IMG/VR virus record: IMGVR_UViG_3300045988_180522
DNA from: a virus
DNA length: 64,000 nucleotides
Direction: 5' to 3' (one strand)
The notes below the pieces were generated by a model. The model had not been told where the DNA came from. It did no database searches and saw only the letters and a program-made list of their open reading frames with translations. Positions 5 through 43,003 of the stretch are shown in pieces. The position numbers and the translations under genes are program-made. How positions within the stretch are numbered: the stretch's first letter is position 1; every line of letters starts with the position of its first letter.

Positions 5-3000
5 ATGGAAGAGAATCAGATAGATGTGGTACAGTTCGACTCTGCTGTAAAAGTAGGGATACAGGGGGCTATAGATATCCCCCAGGGCCTGGAGGAGGAT
101 AATGTTTATGATCTGCTGATGAAGGCCACAGGAATAAGTGAGGGGGAAGAAAATACGGATGTGATACATACTATAGATTATAATGACTATGGGGAACAGC
201 AGGAAAATCCGGAACACTTCCTTGATGCACAGGGACTGGTGGGAGTACAGATCAGAAGACTGATATCTGCTGATATGTCACCGGAAGCAAATATTAAAGT
301 AGGTGACAGAACAATACCATTTACTGAATGGATGAATGAATATAATGCCCTGAATGTAGAAAATGTGCTTCAATCATATATGGCTACAAGTGAGATATTC
401 AGCGATAAGGCCATACTGAGCAGGATTCTTACAGAAGAGGCCAGAGGAGGGGCAAACTATAGCAATGAGCTTGTAAAATCCCTGAAACTGAATAGTAACG
501 GGGAATTCAGGATTCCTCTGTATGATGAATCTATGTCTAATAAGGTACAGCCTTTGCTGAACAGTATTATCAAGAACAGGATTACAAGACAAAAAATAAA
601 GGGGGGAGCCTGTGTACAGGTAAGTAATTACGGGCTTACAGATTCCCTGAATATAGTATTCGAAGGGGAAGGAAAAGACAGACATATCAAATATATTGAA
701 TGTTATATGCCATGGTATTCCAGAACACTGGTAGACGGAATGATGAAGGAAGGCTCACATGTACTGGATATCAGTAAAATACCTGATAGTATGAGAAAGA
801 TTATAGGATACAGGATCCCTACAGAGGATAAGTATTCTATGCTTCCGCTTTATATAAAAGGATTCCTTCCCCAACAGAGTGGAGGGGCTATTATGCTTCC
901 GTCCGATATTACTACAATCACAGGTAGTGACTTTGACGTAGATAAGATGTACCTTATGATTCCTGCATTCAGTGTCAGGGAAAAGCTTGACAGAAAAGCT
1001 GTTAAAAGGGACCTCAAAGAAAGATACAAGAGTATGAAGGACTATAATAACCAGATGGATATAGTCCTGGATGAGATAGTAAATGGAAAGATAGCCTTTA
1101 GTGAGGACTCCTTTGAGATGCAGGTGTATGATCATATCATGGATAACTATGATATATATCATACAAAATATGTTGATGCCGTAAAATACAATGATAACCT
1201 GTCGCCGAAGGAAAATGGTACTGATGCCAGGAATAACAGGATCATAGAACTGATGTGGGGTATACTTACGAATCCTGAGACAGCATTTAAGATGTTAAAT
1301 CCGCAAGGATTTGATAAGATCAAGGAGGCTGCAAGGGTAGCTGTCCTGCTTAAGACAGGAATAAGCCGTGAAGCTCTGAGAAAAGAACTGGGGAATGATC
1401 TTGTCTCAGGACTGAAAAACCTGAGTGTCAGAGAGCTGGATAACATGGTAGAGAAATATAAGATTCCGTATGATCCTTTAAGCCCTCTGACACAGATAGA
1501 GTTCCATAAGAATAATATGACAGGTCTCGGAATGGTTGGGATATATGCAAATCATAATACCCATCATGCCATATCACAATTCACAGATGTGTCTCTGAAT
1601 CCTGTGAATGGGGCCTTTCCTCTGTTAGGACATACTCTCACATCATTACACAGTCAGAAAGCTTTGGATGGTACCTATATAAGCAGGAATGTGTCAGGAT
1701 TTCTGGCTGCTTCTGTGGATAATGCTAAGGACCCTGTCCTGGAGGATTTAAATCAGAATACTTTTACATCTGATGCTTCCATGCTGTTATCAAGGCTCGG
1801 ATACTCAGCATTTCAGGTATCACTGATAATGAATCAGCCTATAGTCAGGGAAATGGCTGATGAATATATCAGGGCCTCCAGGACCGGGGAGGGACGCATG
1901 GATGTAGTAAACAGGATCAGCAATGACTGGATAAAGAGTGCTGACATAAAGAATCCTTCGAAGCTGAATATCAGTGATATTACAGAGGAAGAACTAATAT
2001 ACAATATTATGCAGTCGGTTCTTCCTGCTGATAAAAGATCTGCTTCATATGTAAGGAAACAGGCAGAATTTTCTAAGCTGTTCTCAAAGATAATGAATAC
2101 TGCTGAGGCCCTTGGAATGCTTGTAAGGGCTTCAAGATCAGACACACAGTCAGGAAGTGCCGGACCTTATATTGCTGATACCGAGATAAAGCTGAGAAAT
2201 ATTACATTACTCAGGGAGAAGATAGACTCAGGAAAATTTCCTCTTGATAACGCTGACTTTCTTAAAGATATACCAGTACTGGATGAAGATTCTTTAAGAA
2301 GAGATATACTGAACAGTAAAGTACCTATATTGCAGGCATTTTATACTCTCGGGATATTCAGTACAGGTAATATACTGTCAAGATATATGCCTCACCATCA
2401 GGATAATTTCAGGCAGGTTGTAAACAGTGTCGAATCCATGACTAAGACAGGGAGACTGAATAAGAAGACCCTGAAAACATTATATTCGGATCTGTTTACC
2501 TATATAATGAGTAAGACAGAGTTCTTTAATGAAAAATACAGAAAGGACTTTATCATGAACTTTCCTAACAGATTCAGTAATATAGTCAGTTCTGATCCTG
2601 AGATAGGTAATCTGGGATTTATAAAAGCTCTGAAGACAGATAAACCCTTTGAGAATTCAGATCTGTCAGTTCTTGGTATCTCCGGTGTAGGCAGGCTTAA
2701 TACTACTATGAAAGAGAATTTTTCACGGGACTGGGCCAACCTTCTTTATATGAATAATCCTTCTGCCAACAGACTTGCCCTTGATCTGTTCAGGTATGGT
2801 TATTTCAGGGGAGGATTCGGGTTCAGTCCTTCATCTTATATGCATCTGGCTCCTGTGGTACTTATAGAGAATATCCCCGGGTATATAGAGGCAGAGAGAG
2901 GGATTCTGGGATCTGAAGATGATTATTCTGCGTTTGTTACCCAGTTTGTCCGCAACCATCTGTCCAATAAGCTGCTGGTTCCTCAGACACTGGAGGGAAA

Positions 3001-15068: not shown

Positions 15069-15386
15069 TCACTCATATTCATTATTAATATCAGAACACA
15101 ATTGTCTTATTTTTCTTTCAATTTCCAGTAACCGACTATCTGACATTTGTCTTGCTCTTAGAAGAATAGTACCCATATTCTCTCTTAAAGCATCTCCGAT
15201 ACATCTTATAGCCATACCTGTACTATTTGCCAGCTGACCGTGATATGTAAAAGATATCTCATTAGGGTTTACCTTAAGAATATCCGATTTTTCAGCTTCC
15301 TGATACTCCTCTATCAGCTTCCTGAGATTTTCTATATCTCTTCCAAAGTTTCTTTCTTTCATAATTACACTTATTAATGAATCCAT
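15069..15386 (-). CDS. Hypothetical protein (105 aa)
   Basis: Its start codon overlaps the predicted PolA stop (ATGGATTCATTAA). Confidence 0.5.
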   Translation of the reverse strand: MDSLISVIMKERNFGRDIENLRKLIEEYQEAEKSDILKVNPNEISFTYHGQLANSTGMAIRCIGDALRENMGTILLRARQMSDSRLLEIERKIRQLCSDINNEYE

Positions 15387-15517
15387 CTGTCTCCAATATT
15401 GACATCCACATCTATATGCAGTACAGATGTAAACAGATCACCTGCTTCTCTCATACACTTGGTCAGCAGGTCTGAAGCTTCCTGTACTATATCCTTTGAA
15501 GCTCCTATGTTTACCTC
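15374..15517 (-). CDS. polA: DNA polymerase A, predicted terminal exon 4 (47 aa, C-terminal tail)
   Basis: The - strand frame EVNIGASKDIVQEASDLLTKCMREAGDLFTSVLHIDVDVNIGDRWIH* aligns with the extreme C-terminus of Pol I (EVHKDDVDAVAKQ...LLVEVGSGENWDQAH*). The segment has no start codon of its own and is preceded by AUG-G, giving a possible 3' splice site after G at 15518. Confidence 0.5.
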   Translation of the reverse strand, partial: EVNIGASKDIVQEASDLLTKCMREAGDLFTSVLHIDVDVNIGDRWIH

Positions 15518-16443
15518 CATTTTGTGTTACGAATATATCGATTCCATATATTCTCTTATCCTTTCAGATAAGGCCGGACTATCTCTTATAAAGAAATTTC
15601 TCTCCATATACATCCGAGTTTTACTCCGGACATACTATTAATTTCTTTACCTGTGCGTTTCAATTCCTCTTGGAACTTACACCATTTCTGGTTAGTCTCT
15701 GAGCTCCACCTCTTATAGGAATAACAATTTAATGGGTATCTTGACAGTATATCAGACAAAATCTTAGCTCCTTTATATTTTTTGATCCTTAGATAATAGA
15801 AAATTCTTCCATCCTTTTTTCTTTCAACCTCGATCTCAGGGAATACTCCTATCCTGTTAAAAAATGGGATAAAAACCTGTTCCTGATCCTCCCTGCTAAA
15901 TCTATGAGTACTGATATTATAGTACATCTCATTTTTATGAAGGGATCCATTATCATATATCCATAGAGCTATTCCTAAGTCATCTATTTTATCCATAGCA
16001 TCTTTAAGACTAAGAGACCTTATAGAAGGCAGTATACGGCAGGACCTGGACCTCATACAATATATACTGGTCCTTGAATATCCGTTTTCTTCTACAAAAG
16101 TCTTACTCTTAAACAAATCTCCCAGTAATTGTGATTTGAAGTCTATATACTCCTCATACTTACAATTAGTACAGTAATAGGTGCTATTACTATTTGATGT
16201 ATATATACCTCCATCACCGATCTTTGCTGTCAAAAACACCTGTAATTGTTCTCTACTTAGAGAGTAAAGTTGCTGATTTTCCATTATTGTAGATTTATAG
16301 TATCGTACAAATATAGATAATATTATCAAGCATTCAACAGACATTTCTGTCTGTTTGTAGCTATTATCTCTTTAGGAGTTCCCAGCAGTTAACACAGTTT
16401 TACTACGACAAGGTTTTTTAGGTCCATCGTAGGGTGTTATATA
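15518..16443 (-). mobile_element. Putative group I intron 3 in polA (carries LAGLIDADG HEG)
   Basis: It lies between a Pol motif-C exon ending ...GAG UUU (U at -1) and a terminal exon preceded by ...AAAAUG (terminal G). The flanking frames are both Pol-homologous. The P1-P9 structure was not verified. Confidence 0.4.
15586..16344 (-). CDS. LAGLIDADG homing endonuclease (double motif), inside PolA intervening sequence 3
   Basis: Two LAGLIDADG-type motifs are present, FLTAKIGDGGIY and LGIALWIYDNGSL. The likely start is the internal Met at 16284 (MENQQLYSLSREQLQVFL...). Confidence 0.6.
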   Translation of the reverse strand: MSVECLIILSIFVRYYKSTIMENQQLYSLSREQLQVFLTAKIGDGGIYTSNSNSTYYCTNCKYEEYIDFKSQLLGDLFKSKTFVEENGYSRTSIYCMRSRSCRILPSIRSLSLKDAMDKIDDLGIALWIYDNGSLHKNEMYYNISTHRFSREDQEQVFIPFFNRIGVFPEIEVERKKDGRIFYYLRIKKYKGAKILSDILSRYPLNCYSYKRWSSETNQKWCKFQEELKRTGKEINSMSGVKLGCIWREISL

Positions 16444-16539
16444 AAACTCCACTTTATCATACAGCCATCCTCTGCTCCTGCATTCTCTGAACATATTGAT
16501 CAATGCGAATCTAAGTATCTGAGCTCCGGTGCCTTGTAT
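16444..16539 (-). CDS. polA: DNA polymerase A, predicted exon 3 (32 aa: O-helix end to motif C)
   Basis: The frame IQGTGAQILRFALINMFRECRSRGWLYDKVEF aligns with Pol I MQGTAADIIKRAMIAV...QVHDELVF. It has no ATG and begins immediately after the HNH ORF stop. Motif C reads YDK instead of HDE. Confidence 0.5.
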
Positions 16540-17561
16540 CGTATTTATTAATAATTATTTAATATGTAATTTGCAAATGATTTTAAATCTTCTACGGATG
16601 CGTTCTGTTTCATAGAATTAGCTAGCTTGGAAATAACCTGAACATTGCCTTTTACATATCCTTTATCAGGATCTATTCTATCTAAAGATATAGAATAGTC
16701 AGATCCTCCTAGCACACCAACAATAAAAGGTTTCCCAAGTATAGGGCATCTGTCAGGAATATAAATATCCTCAGGAGTAAGATTAAATTCAATATTATAC
16801 ATAGAGGCCCTCTTTCTGGCATTATTTAATAATGACATAATCTTACCACGTTCAGACTGCTGATATTTTACATCAATCCTCTTTAGATGTTCTGCATAGT
16901 CAGGATTATGAGTTTTTCTTATTTTCTTATTTATGTTAGATCTTAAGATAGTAATCTCTCTATTCGGACATCTTTGTACTCTCTTCACAGCACAAGGTTT
17001 ACAGACAGAATTTATTCTTCTTCTCTTTTTACTATAAGACCACCCAAATTCAGATAATGGAAGAAATCTATGACATTCATTACACCATTTTAAAGATGGA
17101 TCTGACGATCTTACATAATGGCCTCTAGGATTATAGGAAATTCCATTTTCCTCTGCTAGCCTCTTTAATCTCTCTACTTTCTGATTGTATACTCTTTCTT
17201 TTACGCATTCCTTACATACTACCTTATTAGTAGAGTAGAATTCAGAACTATCCTTTTCTTTTCCACAAATTTTGCAAATCATATCTATTATATTTTCTTT
17301 TCACAAACATAATAAGATATATACACAAAAGCAAATTATTAATTATCATTTTCATGATAGATCGGACTATATCATCTCCCTTCTCTTTTTAGAGGATGGG
17401 GAGTGGGATGCTGTGGGCTCATCGTAATGTCCCTAGTCTCTGAACCTTCCTCAGTCTTCCCTGAGGCTCGGCTGCTGATTATCATACAGTTTTCTGCTTA
17501 GATTCCCAGCAATTCTTCCCATTATTCAAGCAATATTCCTATTGCAGGCTGCATACATTCT
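16540..17561 (-). mobile_element. Putative group I intron 2 in polA (carries HNH HEG)
   Basis: Pol homology in exon 2 stops at ...AEKFSVNYC (UGU, U at -1) and resumes at IQGTGAQ after ...AAAUACG. The 243-nt 5' non-ORF segment is GC-richer than its surroundings and contains hairpins (CCUCAGGGAAGACUGAGG). Confidence 0.4.
16548..17282 (-). CDS. HNH-family homing endonuclease-like protein with N-terminal zinc ribbons (244 aa), inside PolA intervening sequence 2
   Basis: CKICG...CKEC and CNEC...CKPC Cys pairs form the N-terminal zinc ribbons. The C-terminal SLDRIDPDKGYVKGNVQVISKLAN resembles the HNH_3-type phage homing endonuclease core. Confidence 0.45.
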   Translation of the reverse strand: MICKICGKEKDSSEFYSTNKVVCKECVKERVYNQKVERLKRLAEENGISYNPRGHYVRSSDPSLKWCNECHRFLPLSEFGWSYSKKRRRINSVCKPCAVKRVQRCPNREITILRSNINKKIRKTHNPDYAEHLKRIDVKYQQSERGKIMSLLNNARKRASMYNIEFNLTPEDIYIPDRCPILGKPFIVGVLGGSDYSISLDRIDPDKGYVKGNVQVISKLANSMKQNASVEDLKSFANYILNNY

Positions 17562-18062
17562 ACAGTAGTTCACCGAAAATTTCTCAGCTTCCGACTTTCT
17601 TTTAAAGTAGTGTCTTACCTTTTTCACCATATCTCTCTCCTCCTGGTCCCTGGGGGACTTCTTTCCGGATCTGTCCTTTGGTATCTCTCTGTACTTGTTC
17701 CAGAATTCCTCTGTAAAGCTTTCTTTCAGCTCACACAGATCATCGAAATCATAGATATGGGCTCTGTGTCCGGTCTTAGGATTTATAATTACATATCCCA
17801 GTCTCATAACTTCCTCTTTCCTCATATTCTGCCACGCTATAAGCCCTTTGAAACCAGATCTGTACCTGTTATCCAGTTCCTTTGCTCTTTCTTCAGAGAG
17901 ACCGAAGTTCTGCATAAGGGTAGTCCATCCTCCCAGATAATTCCACAGGAACTCATACTTCTTTGCTGTATCTCTAAGATCACTGTGATATTTCTTAATA
18001 TCTGCCGTGGACAGGCCTTCCAGTTCTTTGAATACCATCCGGCCAGTCAGTGAGTGCATCAT
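17526..18062 (-). CDS. polA: DNA polymerase A exon 2 ORF (motif B / O-helix region); Pol-homologous part predicted at 17562-18056
   Basis: HSLTGRMVFKELEGLSTADIKKYHSDLRDTAKKYEFLWNYLGG aligns with Pol I DIHRATAAEVFG...RRSAKAINFGLIYG. LSEERAKELDNRYRSGFKGLIAWQNMRKEEVMRLGYVIINPKTGHRAHIY aligns with [48 protein letters not shown]. The C-terminal 12 residues (YCRMYAACNRNIA) have no Pol counterpart and are taken as intron read-through. Confidence 0.7.
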   Translation of the reverse strand: MMHSLTGRMVFKELEGLSTADIKKYHSDLRDTAKKYEFLWNYLGGWTTLMQNFGLSEERAKELDNRYRSGFKGLIAWQNMRKEEVMRLGYVIINPKTGHRAHIYDFDDLCELKESFTEEFWNKYREIPKDRSGKKSPRDQEERDMVKKVRHYFKRKSEAEKFSVNYCRMYAACNRNIA

Positions 18063-19162
18063 ATTTTGTTATCCCAAAGGCTTTTTATCCTCTGGTTCTA
18101 TAAGTACTGGTAACCTCCTTATAGTTCGGCATATATTTTCACCCTCTTTAAGAGGGGCTGAGAACTCGTGGGCTGTTATATTTATTCAAGCCTATGCTCT
18201 ACAATACTTATAACCCTATTCGCAATGTTATAAGTTATCTCGGTGTTGAATAAGTTACGCTTTCTTGAAAGAAAAATAGTAGCATCTTTATACAAGAAAT
18301 CATATATACATTTCTTTACCTTATCAGAAGCATTTATAATTACTTTCCAATAATCGGTAGTTTTTCCTTGAATATGATATATTCTATATGAGAAATTTTT
18401 AAACCAACCCATTATCTGCTTCATAAAATGTTCTGAATTAAACACAAATTCAACAATACTACATCCCACATGGCCGTCTCCATCAAAGAAGCCTCTTATA
18501 AAATGTCTCCACAATTCCTCAGGTATAGAATCTTCAGGAATATAAAAACTTTTGTCTAAAGTTTTTAGTGGTCTGATATTATACTTAGCTCCTAATGTAT
18601 CGAACATATGTTCAGAAGTCCATTGTAATGTGTAACAAGGTTTTTTCTTTCTGTTATGAGTGTAATTTTTAACTAGTAATGAAGAATCAGGACATATATT
18701 ACTATGTAATGCTTCTATAGCTTCCTTGTCATCTATAGTATTATTAAATGCTATCCTTTTCGTATAGTGTAAATTCCTCTTTTCTAATCTACAACACCCA
18801 TCTGCTACTAAAAATCCAAGTAAGTAGGCTTTCAGTTCGGAATCTATATTATCAAAGAAATAGTCGTTAATTCTAAGTCCTCTTCTATCAAACTTAATAT
18901 TATAGTACTTAAAACAATCACTTACTCTTTGGGAAGAAATACCAAACCGACTTCCTATTTCTCTCTGATTTTTACCTTCTCTCATCATTTGACAGGCTAT
19001 TTCTATGTCAAATCTCTCTAAGCACTCTTTTTTAGTCATTTTATTTATCTATGGCAGTTATTAACTATGCAATAGTATAAATAAAAATCACCATTACCAT
19101 ATTTTTCACCGATTTTTCTCAGTTTTTTACTATATATTACTATATAGGGAGACATGCAATCT
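18057..19162 (-). mobile_element. Putative group I intron 1 in polA (carries LAGLIDADG HEG)
   Basis: This 1.1-kb insertion lies between polymerase motif A and motif B. Exon 1 has a stop and exon 2 sits in a different arrangement, so it is not an in-frame intein. A canonical U/G boundary choice (after GAU of ...EGSGD, before CAC of HSLTG) yields EGSGDHSLTGRMVF, matching Pol I EGKDIHRATAAEVF. The flanking non-ORF segments are 123 nt and 125 nt. Confidence 0.4.
18182..19039 (-). CDS. LAGLIDADG homing endonuclease (double motif) with N-terminal HTH, inside PolA intervening sequence 1
   Basis: Two LAGLIDADG-type motifs are present, YLLGFLVADGCC and FIRGFFDGDGHV. The N-terminal REIGSRFGISSQRVSDCF looks like a helix-turn-helix. 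Confidence 0.75.
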   Translation of the reverse strand: MTKKECLERFDIEIACQMMREGKNQREIGSRFGISSQRVSDCFKYYNIKFDRRGLRINDYFFDNIDSELKAYLLGFLVADGCCRLEKRNLHYTKRIAFNNTIDDKEAIEALHSNICPDSSLLVKNYTHNRKKKPCYTLQWTSEHMFDTLGAKYNIRPLKTLDKSFYIPEDSIPEELWRHFIRGFFDGDGHVGCSIVEFVFNSEHFMKQIMGWFKNFSYRIYHIQGKTTDYWKVIINASDKVKKCIYDFLYKDATIFLSRKRNLFNTEITYNIANRVISIVEHRLE

Positions 19163-20653
19163 ATCTCCACTTCCTTCCAGGAACTCACTGATCATAGCCT
19201 CATCCCTTGAAGCATCAGCCATAAGAACAGACTCTTCCCCTTTAACATCCTGTGATATCCACAGCCATCCCTCCCTTGGAATGAAGCATGATCTGGTTCT
19301 TTCATTCTTAGGAAGATTCAAAAGGTTCGGGTCTGTGGAACTGAATCTGGTGGTATCTGTTCCAAGCTGATGATAATTAGTATAGACCCTCCCGGTCCGG
19401 GGGTGGATATTTTCAAGGAATTTAGGCCCGTAAGTACTGACTACTTTCTCCAGTTTCTTGTATTTACAGTAGAGATCTACAATTTTATGGATATACCTCT
19501 GCGGCTTTATTTTCTTGGCATCACAGGTCTTTTTAAATCCTGTGGGACTATCCTTGTCTTCTACCATAACATCACATCCCAGCTCCTCCAGCAGAGGGAT
19601 TACCTGTCCTGAACTGGACCAGTTGATATCACATACATATCTTTCGGATTCATGAAACATATCGTACTGAGGATCCTCATAGATGTACGGATATTGCGAC
19701 ATTCTCTCATAGGCTATTTTCCTGTATTCCAGATTCCCGTCCTTAACTACCTTGTCCAGATCCGGCCTCCTCTTAAGTCTTTTCCTTTTTACAGGAACAG
19801 TCTTTCCTTTTACTTTCTTTGTCTTGTTGGAATCCTGGACATTGTTTGTAACCCATTCTTTCTGTTCCTCTTTGGACATGGAATAAGGATCGAAATAAAG
19901 GATTTTCCCCGGAGACGGATGTTCCAGTGAATATTCTATTACAGCCTTATTAAGAGCTTCTACAGACTCCTTAAGATCCCTCATATCATCTTCCGCCTTC
20001 TCCATCCATTTTTCCCGGCTTACAATCACTCCGCACCATTCCATATAAGACAGAGGGGCAATAGTCATTCCTTCTATAGCAGCAGCAGTATACAAATCCT
20101 GTCTTCTAAGCTCCTCTTCCTGCTTATCAGCTATCATAAGAAGATATTTCACATCATCACATGCATACACTATTACCTCAGGAGTAAGGCCTCTGGAAGC
20201 TATCTCCGTACGTACGGACTTATCCATACTGACTCCTGCATATCTGTGGGCCAGTCCCTGTAAACTTGCTGAAGGATAAGAAGGGTACCCTAGATATATC
20301 AGCTGTTCATTCAGGAACAGGTCATACATATTCATAATACATATTCTGTGATTATGCAGGTATTTGGCATCAAACTTACCATTAACTACTATAAACTGTA
20401 TGTCCTCAGATTCCAGCAACTCCTTATATAGTTGTATATCAATAGTATAAGTGTCAACAAGGATTTGTATATCAAAGTTTCCAAACTGTATACACCTGAT
20501 ATTCCCTGAATGACAGTCCAGTGAAGTAGTCTCAGTATCGAATCCTATTCTTTTCATACTGCGGAGGATATCCAGGGATTTCTCCACAGACATCCTCCCG
20601 TATTTATCAGAGGTTCCGAACAGGTCAGTATTATTACTTACTACATACCTCAT
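19130..20653 (-). CDS. polA: DNA polymerase A exon 1 ORF: 3'-5' exonuclease domain plus polymerase palm through motif A (507 aa ORF; splice donor predicted at 19163)
   Basis: GFDTETTSLD matches the Exo I motif. TTRFSSTDPNLLNLP aligns with TGRLSSSDPNLQNIP, and DVKGEESVLMADASRDEAMISEFLEGSGD aligns with [28 protein letters not shown] (motif A). The ORF terminates 3 residues after the DIH-equivalent. Confidence 0.8.
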   Translation of the reverse strand: MRYVVSNNTDLFGTSDKYGRMSVEKSLDILRSMKRIGFDTETTSLDCHSGNIRCIQFGNFDIQILVDTYTIDIQLYKELLESEDIQFIVVNGKFDAKYLHNHRICIMNMYDLFLNEQLIYLGYPSYPSASLQGLAHRYAGVSMDKSVRTEIASRGLTPEVIVYACDDVKYLLMIADKQEEELRRQDLYTAAAIEGMTIAPLSYMEWCGVIVSREKWMEKAEDDMRDLKESVEALNKAVIEYSLEHPSPGKILYFDPYSMSKEEQKEWVTNNVQDSNKTKKVKGKTVPVKRKRLKRRPDLDKVVKDGNLEYRKIAYERMSQYPYIYEDPQYDMFHESERYVCDINWSSSGQVIPLLEELGCDVMVEDKDSPTGFKKTCDAKKIKPQRYIHKIVDLYCKYKKLEKVVSTYGPKFLENIHPRTGRVYTNYHQLGTDTTRFSSTDPNLLNLPKNERTRSCFIPREGWLWISQDVKGEESVLMADASRDEAMISEFLEGSGDRLHVSLYSNI

Positions 20654-21251
20654 TTTTTTTTATTTTATGCCATACTATATACTTATCAAAATCTATCTTC
20701 CACTTGTGCTTGTCGAAGAATTCACTTCCGAGGATTCCTGTAACATTAAGGCCCTCCCTGTTGCTGAACTCTCTCAGTCCTTTCAGGTCTGAGACCAGAA
20801 AGTCCTCATTGAATTCCATATTCCTGATATTAAATCTGACCTGCATACCATAGGAATCCATAATAGCTCCGTTCCCCACCTGTATCTTATCTCCTTCGGC
20901 TATTGTCTTCCCTTTCAGCTTATCCTTTATAGTATACAGGAATTGAATATCAAGGCAGTTCTGGTGAGCTCCGGAATCCAGAAGGAACCTGCATTTCTTA
21001 CCATACAGGTGAACAATGATCATCGGAGTCTTTGTCCTTTCGAAATAATCCTCAAAAGAGAAAAACTCCCATTCTTTTGTATTCTCATTGTTCCTGTTCA
21101 GATCCCTTGAGATTCTCAGGGTAATAAGATATACCGGCCACAATGCCAGTAATAAAAATGCCAGACATACCATCCCCATATTACCTCCTTCCGGTGGAGC
21201 CGAATCCTCCTCTGGACTCATTTCCCAGATGTTGTACTTCCACAAACTCAA
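20634..21251 (-). CDS. Membrane-anchored retropepsin-like aspartic protease (205 aa)
   Basis: Has an N-terminal TM helix ([19 protein letters not shown]) followed by [13 protein letters not shown], which carries the D-S/T-G-A aspartyl protease signature. Confidence 0.5.
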
Positions 21252-42912: not shown

Positions 42913-42985
42913 GGCCTGGTAACTCAATGCATAGAGTGACTCCGTCCTAAGGAGTAAGTTGCGGGTTGGAGTCCCGCCCGGGCCA
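42913..42985 (+). tRNA. tRNA-Arg (anticodon CCU), 73 nt
   Basis: By hand folding, the acceptor stem GGCCTGG pairs with CCGGGCC, the D stem ACTC with GAGT, and the anticodon stem ACTCC with GGAGT around loop GTCCTAA (U33, CCT, A37). The T stem GCGGG pairs with CCCGC around loop TTGGAGT, and the discriminator is A. The D-loop lacks GG and the T-loop has G56, consistent with a covarying C19-G56 pair. Confidence 0.7.
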
Positions 42986-43003
42986 CTGGTAAAAGTAAGA
43001 TAT

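Follow-up and report, generated by a model that had tools for sequence, protein, structure and literature searches.

A family-A polymerase gene in four pieces

We analyzed a 64,000-nt stretch of viral DNA, IMG/VR record IMGVR_UViG_3300045988_180522 (hereafter, the window), focusing on its family-A DNA polymerase (PolA) gene. This gene lies on the minus strand at 20653..15374 and consists of four colinear pieces separated by three inserts, each with one long open reading frame (ORF). We refer to the inserts as candidate introns I1, I2 and I3, numbered from the 5' end of the gene. The window DNA is 97.8% identical to Dulem virus 41 (PP511520, 92.9 kb, circular, lemur feces), and the closest annotated PolA relatives in a tblastn search, those of crAss001, IAS virus and cr111_1 (33-44% amino acid identity), are all crAss-like; the source of the window is a crAss-like gut phage.

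The arrangement of four colinear minus-strand PolA segments with three ORF-bearing inserts had been noticed in a first-pass annotation of the window, and both the ORF list and protein comparison confirmed it. Segment 1 is indeed closed by a stop, its ORF running from 20653 to 19130. The PolA homologues P0001-P0014 contain PF01612 and PF00476, and the predicted spliced product is colinear over its full length with homologues at 37-50% identity. The encoded protein has both the 3'-5' exonuclease and the DNA_pol_A domain that mark a family-A DNA polymerase, in the same order as in its uninterrupted homologues.

To place the boundaries, we relied on an intron-less allele, which the first-pass annotation had suggested seeking among uninterrupted polA genes of related phages. 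A protein search returned an uninterrupted 726-aa protein (P0001) that represents 272 member sequences and is 98% identical to the spliced protein assembled in that annotation. The same search context yielded P0002, a 507-aa protein that corresponds to the ORF of segment 1, short read-through tail included (145 members; the Dulem virus 41 polymerase/primase). P0001 is encoded on contigs L002 (92.5 kb) and L003, which served as the boundary reference and aligned to the window at 98-99% DNA identity in four exactly abutting blocks (Table 1). One base was ambiguous at each junction (boundaries ±1 nt), and we took the sole choice that gives a 5' exon ending in U and an insert ending in G.

The resulting protein-level junctions are EGSGD|MHSLTGR, VNYC|IQGTGAQ and EFYITPYD|EVNIGASKD, and the predicted ligated-exon RNA reads GGAGAU|AUGCAC, ACUGU|AUACAA (ACUACUGU|AUACAAGG) and CUACGAU|GAGGUA (CCCUACGAU|GAGGUAAAC), respectively. 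Junction 2 had been placed exactly right from the start, whereas the earlier choices for junctions 1 (EGSGD|HSLTGR) and 3 (YDKVEF|EVNIGASKD) lost one and six codons. By the intron-less allele, segment 3 has 38 codons instead of 32, the 47-codon C-terminal tail stands, and the spliced product measures 748 aa instead of about 741. After correction of the two junctions, a 5' exon ending in U, an insert ending in G and a gap-free PolA alignment hold together at all three boundaries, as proposed. The absence of a start codon, stated for segments 3 and 4, is accurate for segment 3, but an in-frame ATG (15520..15518) directly precedes segment 4. These errors of the first-pass annotation (two junctions, product length and start codon) are matters of detail.

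Aligned over 726 aa without gaps, the spliced product and P0001 share 99.3% identity; P0001 as called begins at residue 23 of the window protein. The exons are 98-99% identical to the intact allele and contain neither frameshifts nor stops. I3 separates the Asp-Glu pair of motif C between exons 3 and 4, at a point where homologues show xHDE.

No start codon lies at the 5' end of exon 3, whose reading frame opens directly after the stop of the I2 endonuclease. Before exons 2 and 4, the first ATG consists of the last three bases of the intron (18062..18060 in I1; 15520..15518 in I3), segment 2 starting with ATGATG (18062/18059). Thus, AUG ends both I1 and I3 in frame with the next exon, and I2 of Dulem virus 41 ends in GUAUG (L001 5674..5676). 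These terminal AUGs may be coincidental or may permit some translation of the downstream exon from unspliced RNA. They also mislead ORF callers, producing apparent starts at MMHSL... and MEVNIG....

Close relatives of the window phage carry different sets of the inserts. The window allele has I1, I2 and I3, each with an endonuclease ORF, while an independent 80-kb IMG/VR contig (L122) has I1 and I3 and lacks I2, position 17561 being joined straight to 16539. Dulem virus 41 lacks I3 and carries an I1 with its ORF cut to a remnant of ~140 nt and a 278-nt I2 without an ORF; its polymerase region is annotated in GenBank as three separate 'polymerase/primase' coding sequences (CDSs). L002 and L003 have zero introns. 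These four alleles, with 0, 2, 2 and 3 introns, occur among genomes 97-99% identical, and the endonuclease gene is present, deleted or absent. As near-identical genomes either have a given insert or lack it exactly, each insert is an independent unit gained or lost precisely at its boundaries. As Dulem virus 41 illustrates, the ORF can vanish while the flanking non-coding parts of the intron stay.

Two further observations concern these alleles. The empty I3 site of Dulem virus 41 (L001 5785..5800) reads CCCTATGAT|GAAGCGGAT (…PYD|EAD), whereas the same site in the window (16434..16426 + 15517..15509) and in the intron-less L002 reads CCCTACGAT|GAGGTAAA(C/T) (…PYD|EVN). Such a concentration of exon differences around the insertion site might stem from co-conversion or from variation of the target that confers resistance to the endonuclease. 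In addition, the intron-less L002 (1205..2503, minus strand) and L003 (13..1311) have a 432-aa IS605 OrfB/TnpB (Cas12f-like) ORF just upstream of the polymerase; they are intron-free, yet the same gene has a different mobile element at its 5' end.

Table 1. Coordinates of the polymerase exons, inserts, endonuclease ORFs and RNA elements in the window
Feature	Coordinates	Strand	Size	Remarks
Aligned block 1	20666..19162			window coordinates vs L002/L003
Aligned block 2	18059..17561			window coordinates vs L002/L003
Aligned block 3	16539..16425			window coordinates vs L002/L003
Aligned block 4	15517..15200			window coordinates vs L002/L003
PolA exon 1	19163..20653	-	497 codons	3'-5' exonuclease domain to motif A, end ...EGSGD; ORF list and intron-less allele L002
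PolA exon 2	17562..18059	-	166 codons	MHSLTGR... motif B/O-helix ...SVNYC
PolA exon 3	16426..16539	-	38 codons	IQGTGAQ...EFYITPYD; last residue is the motif C aspartate
PolA exon 4	15374..15517	-	47 codons + stop	EVNIGASKD...GDRWIH
Intron 1 (I1)	19162..18060	-	1103 nt	intron-less allele
Intron 2 (I2)	17561..16540	-	1022 nt	intron-less allele; exact absence in L122 and L002
Intron 3 (I3)	16425..15518	-	908 nt	intron-less allele
I1 endonuclease ORF	18182..19039	-	285 aa	LAGLIDADG; within L5
I2 endonuclease ORF	16548..17282	-	244 aa	HNH/endonuclease VII-like; ends 8 nt before 3' splice site
I3 endonuclease ORF	15586..16287	-	233 aa	from ATG 16287; 252 aa from upstream ATG 16344; LAGLIDADG
I1 P1, P10, P2	P1 19168-19163/19153-19148; P10 19158-19154/18059-18055; P2 19147-19130	-		P1 GGAGAU/GUCUCC; P10 UGCAU/AUGCA
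I1 P3, P4, P6	P3 19122-19116/18164-18158; P4 19112-19107/18245-18240; P6 18235-18206	-		
I1 P7, P7.1, P8	P7 18199-18193/18133-18128; P7.1 18192-18171; P8 18156-18142	-		
I1 P9, P9.1, omega-G	P9 18124-18098; P9.1 18095-18074; omega-G 18060	-		
I2 P1, P10, omega-G	P1 17565-17562/17552-17549; P10 17557-17553/16539-16535; omega-G 16540	-		IA-type with P7.1/P7.2; P1 CUGU/GCAG; P10 UGUAU/AUACA
I2 terminal hairpin	17337-17331/16574-16568	-		AAUUUGC/GCAAAUU; encloses ORF in loop
I3 P1, P10	P1 16432-16426/16409-16403; P10 16414-16410/15517-15513	-		IA-type; P1 CUACGAU/GUCGUAG; P10 ACCUU/GAGGU
I3 P3, P4	P3 16397-16392/15656-15651; P4 16387-16383/16275-16271	-		
I3 P5	16377-16375/16282-16280; extension P5a-c 16368-16316	-		GAAA loop at end of extension
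I3 P6, P7	P6 16263-16259/15713-15709; P7 15699-15693/15581-15576	-		
I3 P7.1, P7.2, P8	P7.1 15692-15681; P7.2 15677-15662; P8 15635-15608	-		
I3 P9, P9.1, omega-G	P9 15572-15555; P9.1 15553-15531; omega-G 15518	-		GAAA loop in P9

RNA structures and endonuclease genes of the inserts

All three inserts show P1 and P10 pairing potential at their boundaries, a feature whose absence the first-pass annotation had named as an argument against introns. In each, the 5' exon ends in a U that forms a U.G wobble with the guide sequence in P1, the intron ends in an omega-G, and P10 comprises 5 bp, its guide lying directly 5' of the P1 guide. In I3, three lineages differ in P10, and the 3' exon differs accordingly in each (ACCUU/GAGGU, AUUUU/GAAAU and AUCUU/GAGAU). 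The guanosine-binding site in P7, a G:C pair beside a bulged A, was found as G(A)GACUA/UAGUCC in I2 and I3 and as G(A)GCAUA/UAUGCC in I1. P7 is invariant in the I1 and I3 families, partly owing to the search pattern, and hence carries no covariation signal. A P3-P9 core with the P3/P7 pseudoknot is supported in I1 and I3 by covariation, and in I2 by Rfam alignment together with a minimum free energy (MFE) fold. In-frame stops lie 10, 11 and 17 codons past the three 5' junctions, and a stop soon after the 5' splice site is typical of phage group I introns (PMC2504315).

We then scanned the inserts with Rfam, as the first-pass annotation had proposed. The group I intron model RF00028 recognized I2 at 71.7 bits (gathering threshold, 50), but I1 and I3 gave no match at E<=10. 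Across the window region, I2 was the only genuine match at this threshold, those to bxd_4, mir-1233 and SNORD43 being due to chance, and no group II intron family was matched. As had been expected earlier, parts of the core overlap the endonuclease ORF in all three introns.

The RF00028 match to I2 (17571..17343, E = 3e-16) covers the full model, extending from exon 2, which supplies the 5' strand of P1, through P1-P9. The ORF-less I2 of Dulem virus 41 obtained the same Rfam score, and its MFE fold recovers P2-P9. The terminal hairpin that encloses the ORF shows a compensated change between the two copies (AAUUUGC/GCAAAUU in the window; AAUUCGC/GCGAAUU in Dulem virus 41). Because the 3' strand of this hairpin lies within the last codons of the ORF, the ORF reaches to 8 nt from the splice site. 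This ORF, first annotated as an HNH endonuclease, matched PHROG families (endonuclease, 2e-30; endonuclease VII, 9.5e-27; HNH endonuclease, 3.5e-10) but no Pfam family at E<=10.

The I1 ORF is a LAGLIDADG endonuclease, as first annotated (Pfam LAGLIDADG_3, 8.3e-10, 39.2 bits against a cut-off of 22.5; phrog_4645 'endonuclease', 4e-41), and its last ~20 codons overlap P4', P6, J6/7, the 5' strand of P7 and P7.1. By blastn, the 3' 190 nt of I1 are 72-77% identical to sequences of the phages JCL1032, Lbo-JY46, SA2, 6ec and CPQ4. I1-like sequences thus occur in Lactobacillus phage JCL1032 (terminase), Staphylococcus phages SA2 and 6ec, and Clostridium phage CPQ4. In JCL1032, the I1-homologous stretch fills the gap between the two parts of a joined terL CDS, and this phage has two proven self-splicing group I introns according to Riipinen & Alatossava 2004, as cited in PMC6669764. 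In Leptolyngbya phage Lbo-JY46 (L005 741..1688), a LAGLIDADG ORF and the 3' half of an I1-type intron come after a DNA polymerase gene, so the I1-type family has also entered the polymerase gene of an unrelated (cyano)phage. I1 shares all helices from P3 to P9.1 with the JCL1032-type introns of Lactobacillus, Staphylococcus, Clostridium and Leptolyngbya phages, with compensatory changes; the host genes and P1 guides differ, and many of those copies are ORF-less. When the JCL1032, Leptolyngbya, Staphylococcus, CPQ4, cr128_1 and MT835492 loci were scanned together with Rfam, only CPQ4 scored, its intron reaching a sub-threshold 39 bits (E = 8e-7) on RF00028.

To examine conservation of the I1 structure, we used a pattern built from conserved boxes, which matched 119 IMG/VR stretches (L011-L129). 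The spacing between the P4 strands was measurable in 82 copies, of which 59 were ORF-less. An alignment (A1, MAFFT) of 36 unique ORF-less copies and I1 of Dulem virus 41 was then counted against a hand-drawn group I structure. In these 37 sequences, 85.6% of cells were paired, compared with 65% in shuffled and 33-44% in slid controls, and the covariation score was 0.512, compared with 0.15 and 0.07-0.14, respectively. Pairing reached 98.8% in P3 (two-sided changes in 7 of 7 pairs), 100% in P4 and P7, 88% in P6, 93% in P7.1, 98.7% in P9 and 97.6% in P9.1. Compensatory changes occurred in 36 of the 40 pairs of P3, P4, P6, P7.1, P9 and P9.1.

I3 is homologous end to end (66-67% identity) to inserts at TPYD|E of PolA in the crAss-like cr128_1 and MT835492. 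In the 18 sequences of its alignment (A2), 90.9% of cells were paired against 34-47% in slid controls, and two-sided changes affected 20 pairs against 0-4. P3, P4, P5, P5a, P7 and P9 were 100% paired, and P9.1 was 99.3% paired. In the covariation tests, I1 and I3 both scored above all shuffled and slid controls. A G:C to A:U double change in P5b of I3 also distinguishes the window from L122, a close relative. During modeling, ACUAU at ~16300 was dropped as the 5' strand of P7 because it offers no G:C with a bulge, and a pairing from RNAalifold of CUCC (16378) with GGAG (15707) as P4/P6 was discarded since it conflicts with the helix order and with L009. A P1 of GGAGUUU/GAACUCC for junction 3 was superseded when the intron-less allele shifted this junction by 18 nt.

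The I3 ORF also proved to be the second LAGLIDADG endonuclease that had been reported, with a Pfam LAGLIDADG_2 match of 6.9e-6 (26.5 bits; cut-off, 25). It begins in the P5 extension, spans P5', P4', P6, P7, P7.1, P7.2, P3' and P8, and stops 4 nt before the 3' strand of P7. The canonical R element (UCAGAGACUA, 15702..15693) lies inside the ORF, and the S element (AGAUAGUCC) just past it. Overlap between ORF and core has been described for some bacterial group I introns (PMC3984707). In I3, a single RNA molecule may either be translated into the endonuclease or fold as the ribozyme but not both, which would amount to a built-in switch. A motif search of IMG/VR, covering 19 further stretches, found no ORF-less I3, all 17 complete copies having the ORF and the other two stretches being truncated at the end of the available sequence.

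In the cr128_1 lineage (L009 ~2235..2245, corresponding to window 16287..16280), AUGGA has become AUAGG, so that the AUG of the ORF is lost. This loss accompanies a compensatory change in P5 from UCC:GGA to CCU:AGG, and the annotated I3 ORF of cr128_1 starts further upstream, within the P5 extension.

Splicing model and alternative explanations

Every available test favors RNA splicing of three group I introns, and the interpretation offered in the first-pass annotation is thus supported. The polymerase gene in all likelihood holds three independent, splicing group I introns. The whole gene would be transcribed as a single pre-mRNA in which each intron folds as a group I ribozyme, P1 holding the 5' exon by its U.G wobble and P10 aligning the 3' exon. 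The attack on the 5' splice site would come from a guanosine docked at the P7 G:C pair beside the bulged A; the intron-terminal G would then replace this guanosine, the exons would be ligated, and the spliced mRNA would encode the 748-aa polymerase. The endonucleases, of LAGLIDADG type in I1 and I3 and HNH/endonuclease VII-like in I2, would cut intron-less alleles of co-infecting relatives, and repair of the cut alleles would copy the intron in. Such a homing cycle would explain why close relatives either have or precisely lack each intron.

Several observations weigh against this model. The assignment of I1 and I3 to group I rests on the structural model and covariation, and RF00028 missed not only these two introns in the window but also the near-ORF-less I1 of Dulem virus 41 (E<=1) and all 16 I1-motif loci scanned (E<=1), several of which have aligned ORF-less copies. 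P1, P2 and P8 of the I1 family were badly aligned by MAFFT (47-71% paired). For I3, the covariation sample consists of just three or four lineages, P5b, P6 and P8 were mis-registered by the aligner, and pairing was low in P6 and P8 (within a 41-71% range shared with I1 helices). The I3 ORF covers most of the 3' half of the core, so that folding could be disturbed, and in-frame ATGs adjoin exons 2 and 4 on their 5' side.

These ATGs bear on the question of whether splicing is needed at all. Some T4-like phage genes are reported to be split by free-standing endonuclease genes, and the insertions here might likewise leave separately translated polymerase fragments that assemble without RNA splicing. 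Starts directly before exon 2 (18062/18059) and exon 4 (15520) would suit such an arrangement, as would the three 'polymerase/primase' CDSs of Dulem virus 41. Even so, we consider it highly improbable: exon 3 would have to be translated without a start codon from a frame opening right after an endonuclease stop, the Asp and Glu of motif C would fall on different polypeptides, and fragment 1 would bear a 10-residue non-homologous tail. Moreover, a free-standing endonuclease gene would not need the P1, P10, omega-G and covariation-supported cores found in all inserts. LAGLIDADG endonucleases occur in inteins too, but the sequence refutes both an intein and a group II intron: stops lie 10-17 codons past each 5' junction and none of the ORFs is an in-frame extension of an exon, while the ORFs are LAGLIDADG or HNH-like, with no reverse-transcriptase ORF and no group II match in the Rfam scan (E<=10). 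An assembly artefact was likewise rejected, as the elements are common to independent assemblies (L001, L122).

A different concern is whether all three introns still splice unaided. If at least one insert (e.g., I3, or I1 and I3) no longer spliced, the polymerase would be a pseudogene or helper-dependent. The missing Rfam matches of I1 and I3, the heavy overlap of ORF and core in I3, and the endonuclease loss in Dulem virus 41, which shows that these elements decay, would fit this explanation. It is nevertheless very unlikely, given that the exons match the intact allele without a frameshift or stop and that all helices are intact in the window copy. The combination of I1 and I3 also recurs in the independently assembled L122, the I1-truncated protein type P0002 represents 145 member sequences, and the compensatory P5b change between the window and L122 indicates continuing selection on structure. 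In some organellar group I introns, the LAGLIDADG protein serves as a maturase, and I1 and/or I3 might accordingly need their own protein rather than being fully self-splicing; Yutin et al. name the LAGLIDADG protein an 'intron-encoded endonuclease maturase' (PMC7886860). We regard protein-assisted splicing as unlikely, because I1 of Dulem virus 41 persists with its endonuclease ORF deleted and the prevalence of ORF-less copies among the measurable I1 family indicates that the RNA can persist without the protein.

Comparison with known phage introns

We place I1 near D732|I733 and I2 near P847|M848 in E. coli numbering. Phage family-A polymerase group I introns with HNH endonucleases are known from SPO1 (I-HmuI), SP82, Bastille (I-BasI), Pf-WMP3 (I-PfoP3I), phiI/W31 and phiL7, at sites 674, 676 and 881 (PMC3428280, 2012). 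On the numbering assumed here, the sites of I1 and I2 are not among these, whereas I3, at motif C (D|E), is at or adjoining the phiI/W31 site 881. The SPO1-type introns resemble the present ones in gene family, in being IA-type ribozymes with an endonuclease ORF, in their insertion at highly conserved catalytic motifs and in the early in-frame stop. However, each of those genes has one intron, compared with three here, and their endonucleases are HNH, while two of the three here are LAGLIDADG.

Three self-splicing introns of group I within a single gene are known from orf142 of Staphylococcus phage Twort, according to Landthaler & Shub 1999, as cited in PMC6669764. The likeness lies in the number of group I introns within one phage protein-coding gene; gene and host differ, and splicing was established experimentally in Twort, whereas it is predicted here. 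In crAss-like phages, core genes occur in four or five pieces owing to group I introns with LAGLIDADG or other endonucleases (Yutin et al. 2021, PMC7886860). Those introns were detected through their endonuclease domains and belong chiefly to the Delta and Zeta groups, where they lie in the major capsid protein (MCP), PolB and primase genes. Our phage belongs to the same assemblage, but the gene is PolA, and RNA structures, exact boundaries and an allele series have been worked out here.

The phenomenon is therefore already published for phages, crAss-like ones included, and our finding leaves unchanged what is known of how such elements work. What we add are exact boundaries, RNA models of two Rfam-invisible introns, a four-state allele series and a corrected annotation of Dulem virus 41. 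The polymerase of this virus and of the window phage should be annotated as one spliced gene of 748 aa. Together, the four alleles give a concise view, from a natural population of gut phages, of homing introns being gained, decaying and being lost.

Because the standard Rfam model fails to detect two of these three introns, the intron content of gut phages is probably under-called. I1-type copies, at least 119 in IMG/VR, are spread over terminase, tape-measure and polymerase genes. On the structural model, the I1-type RNA, with its P7 of GAGCAUA/UAUGCC and its conserved CACGAG and GAUAACA boxes, may represent a large phage group I clade unseen by RF00028; if so, group I introns would be systematically under-counted in phage metagenomes. 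That such a clade exists and that I3 also switches between translation and folding is a tentative combination, which we consider possible but rather doubtful.

Elsewhere in the window, one tRNA gene was identified, tRNA-Arg(CCU) at 42913..42986 on the plus strand (Rfam, 55.4 bits; ARAGORN), which is not a suppressor tRNA. A 205-aa ORF (20634..21251, minus strand) adjoins the polymerase, whose start codon it overlaps by 20 nt. It contains a domain of the retropepsin-like aspartyl proteases (Pfam Asp_protease_2, 6e-6), and its counterpart in Dulem virus 41 is named 'retropepsin-like protein'.

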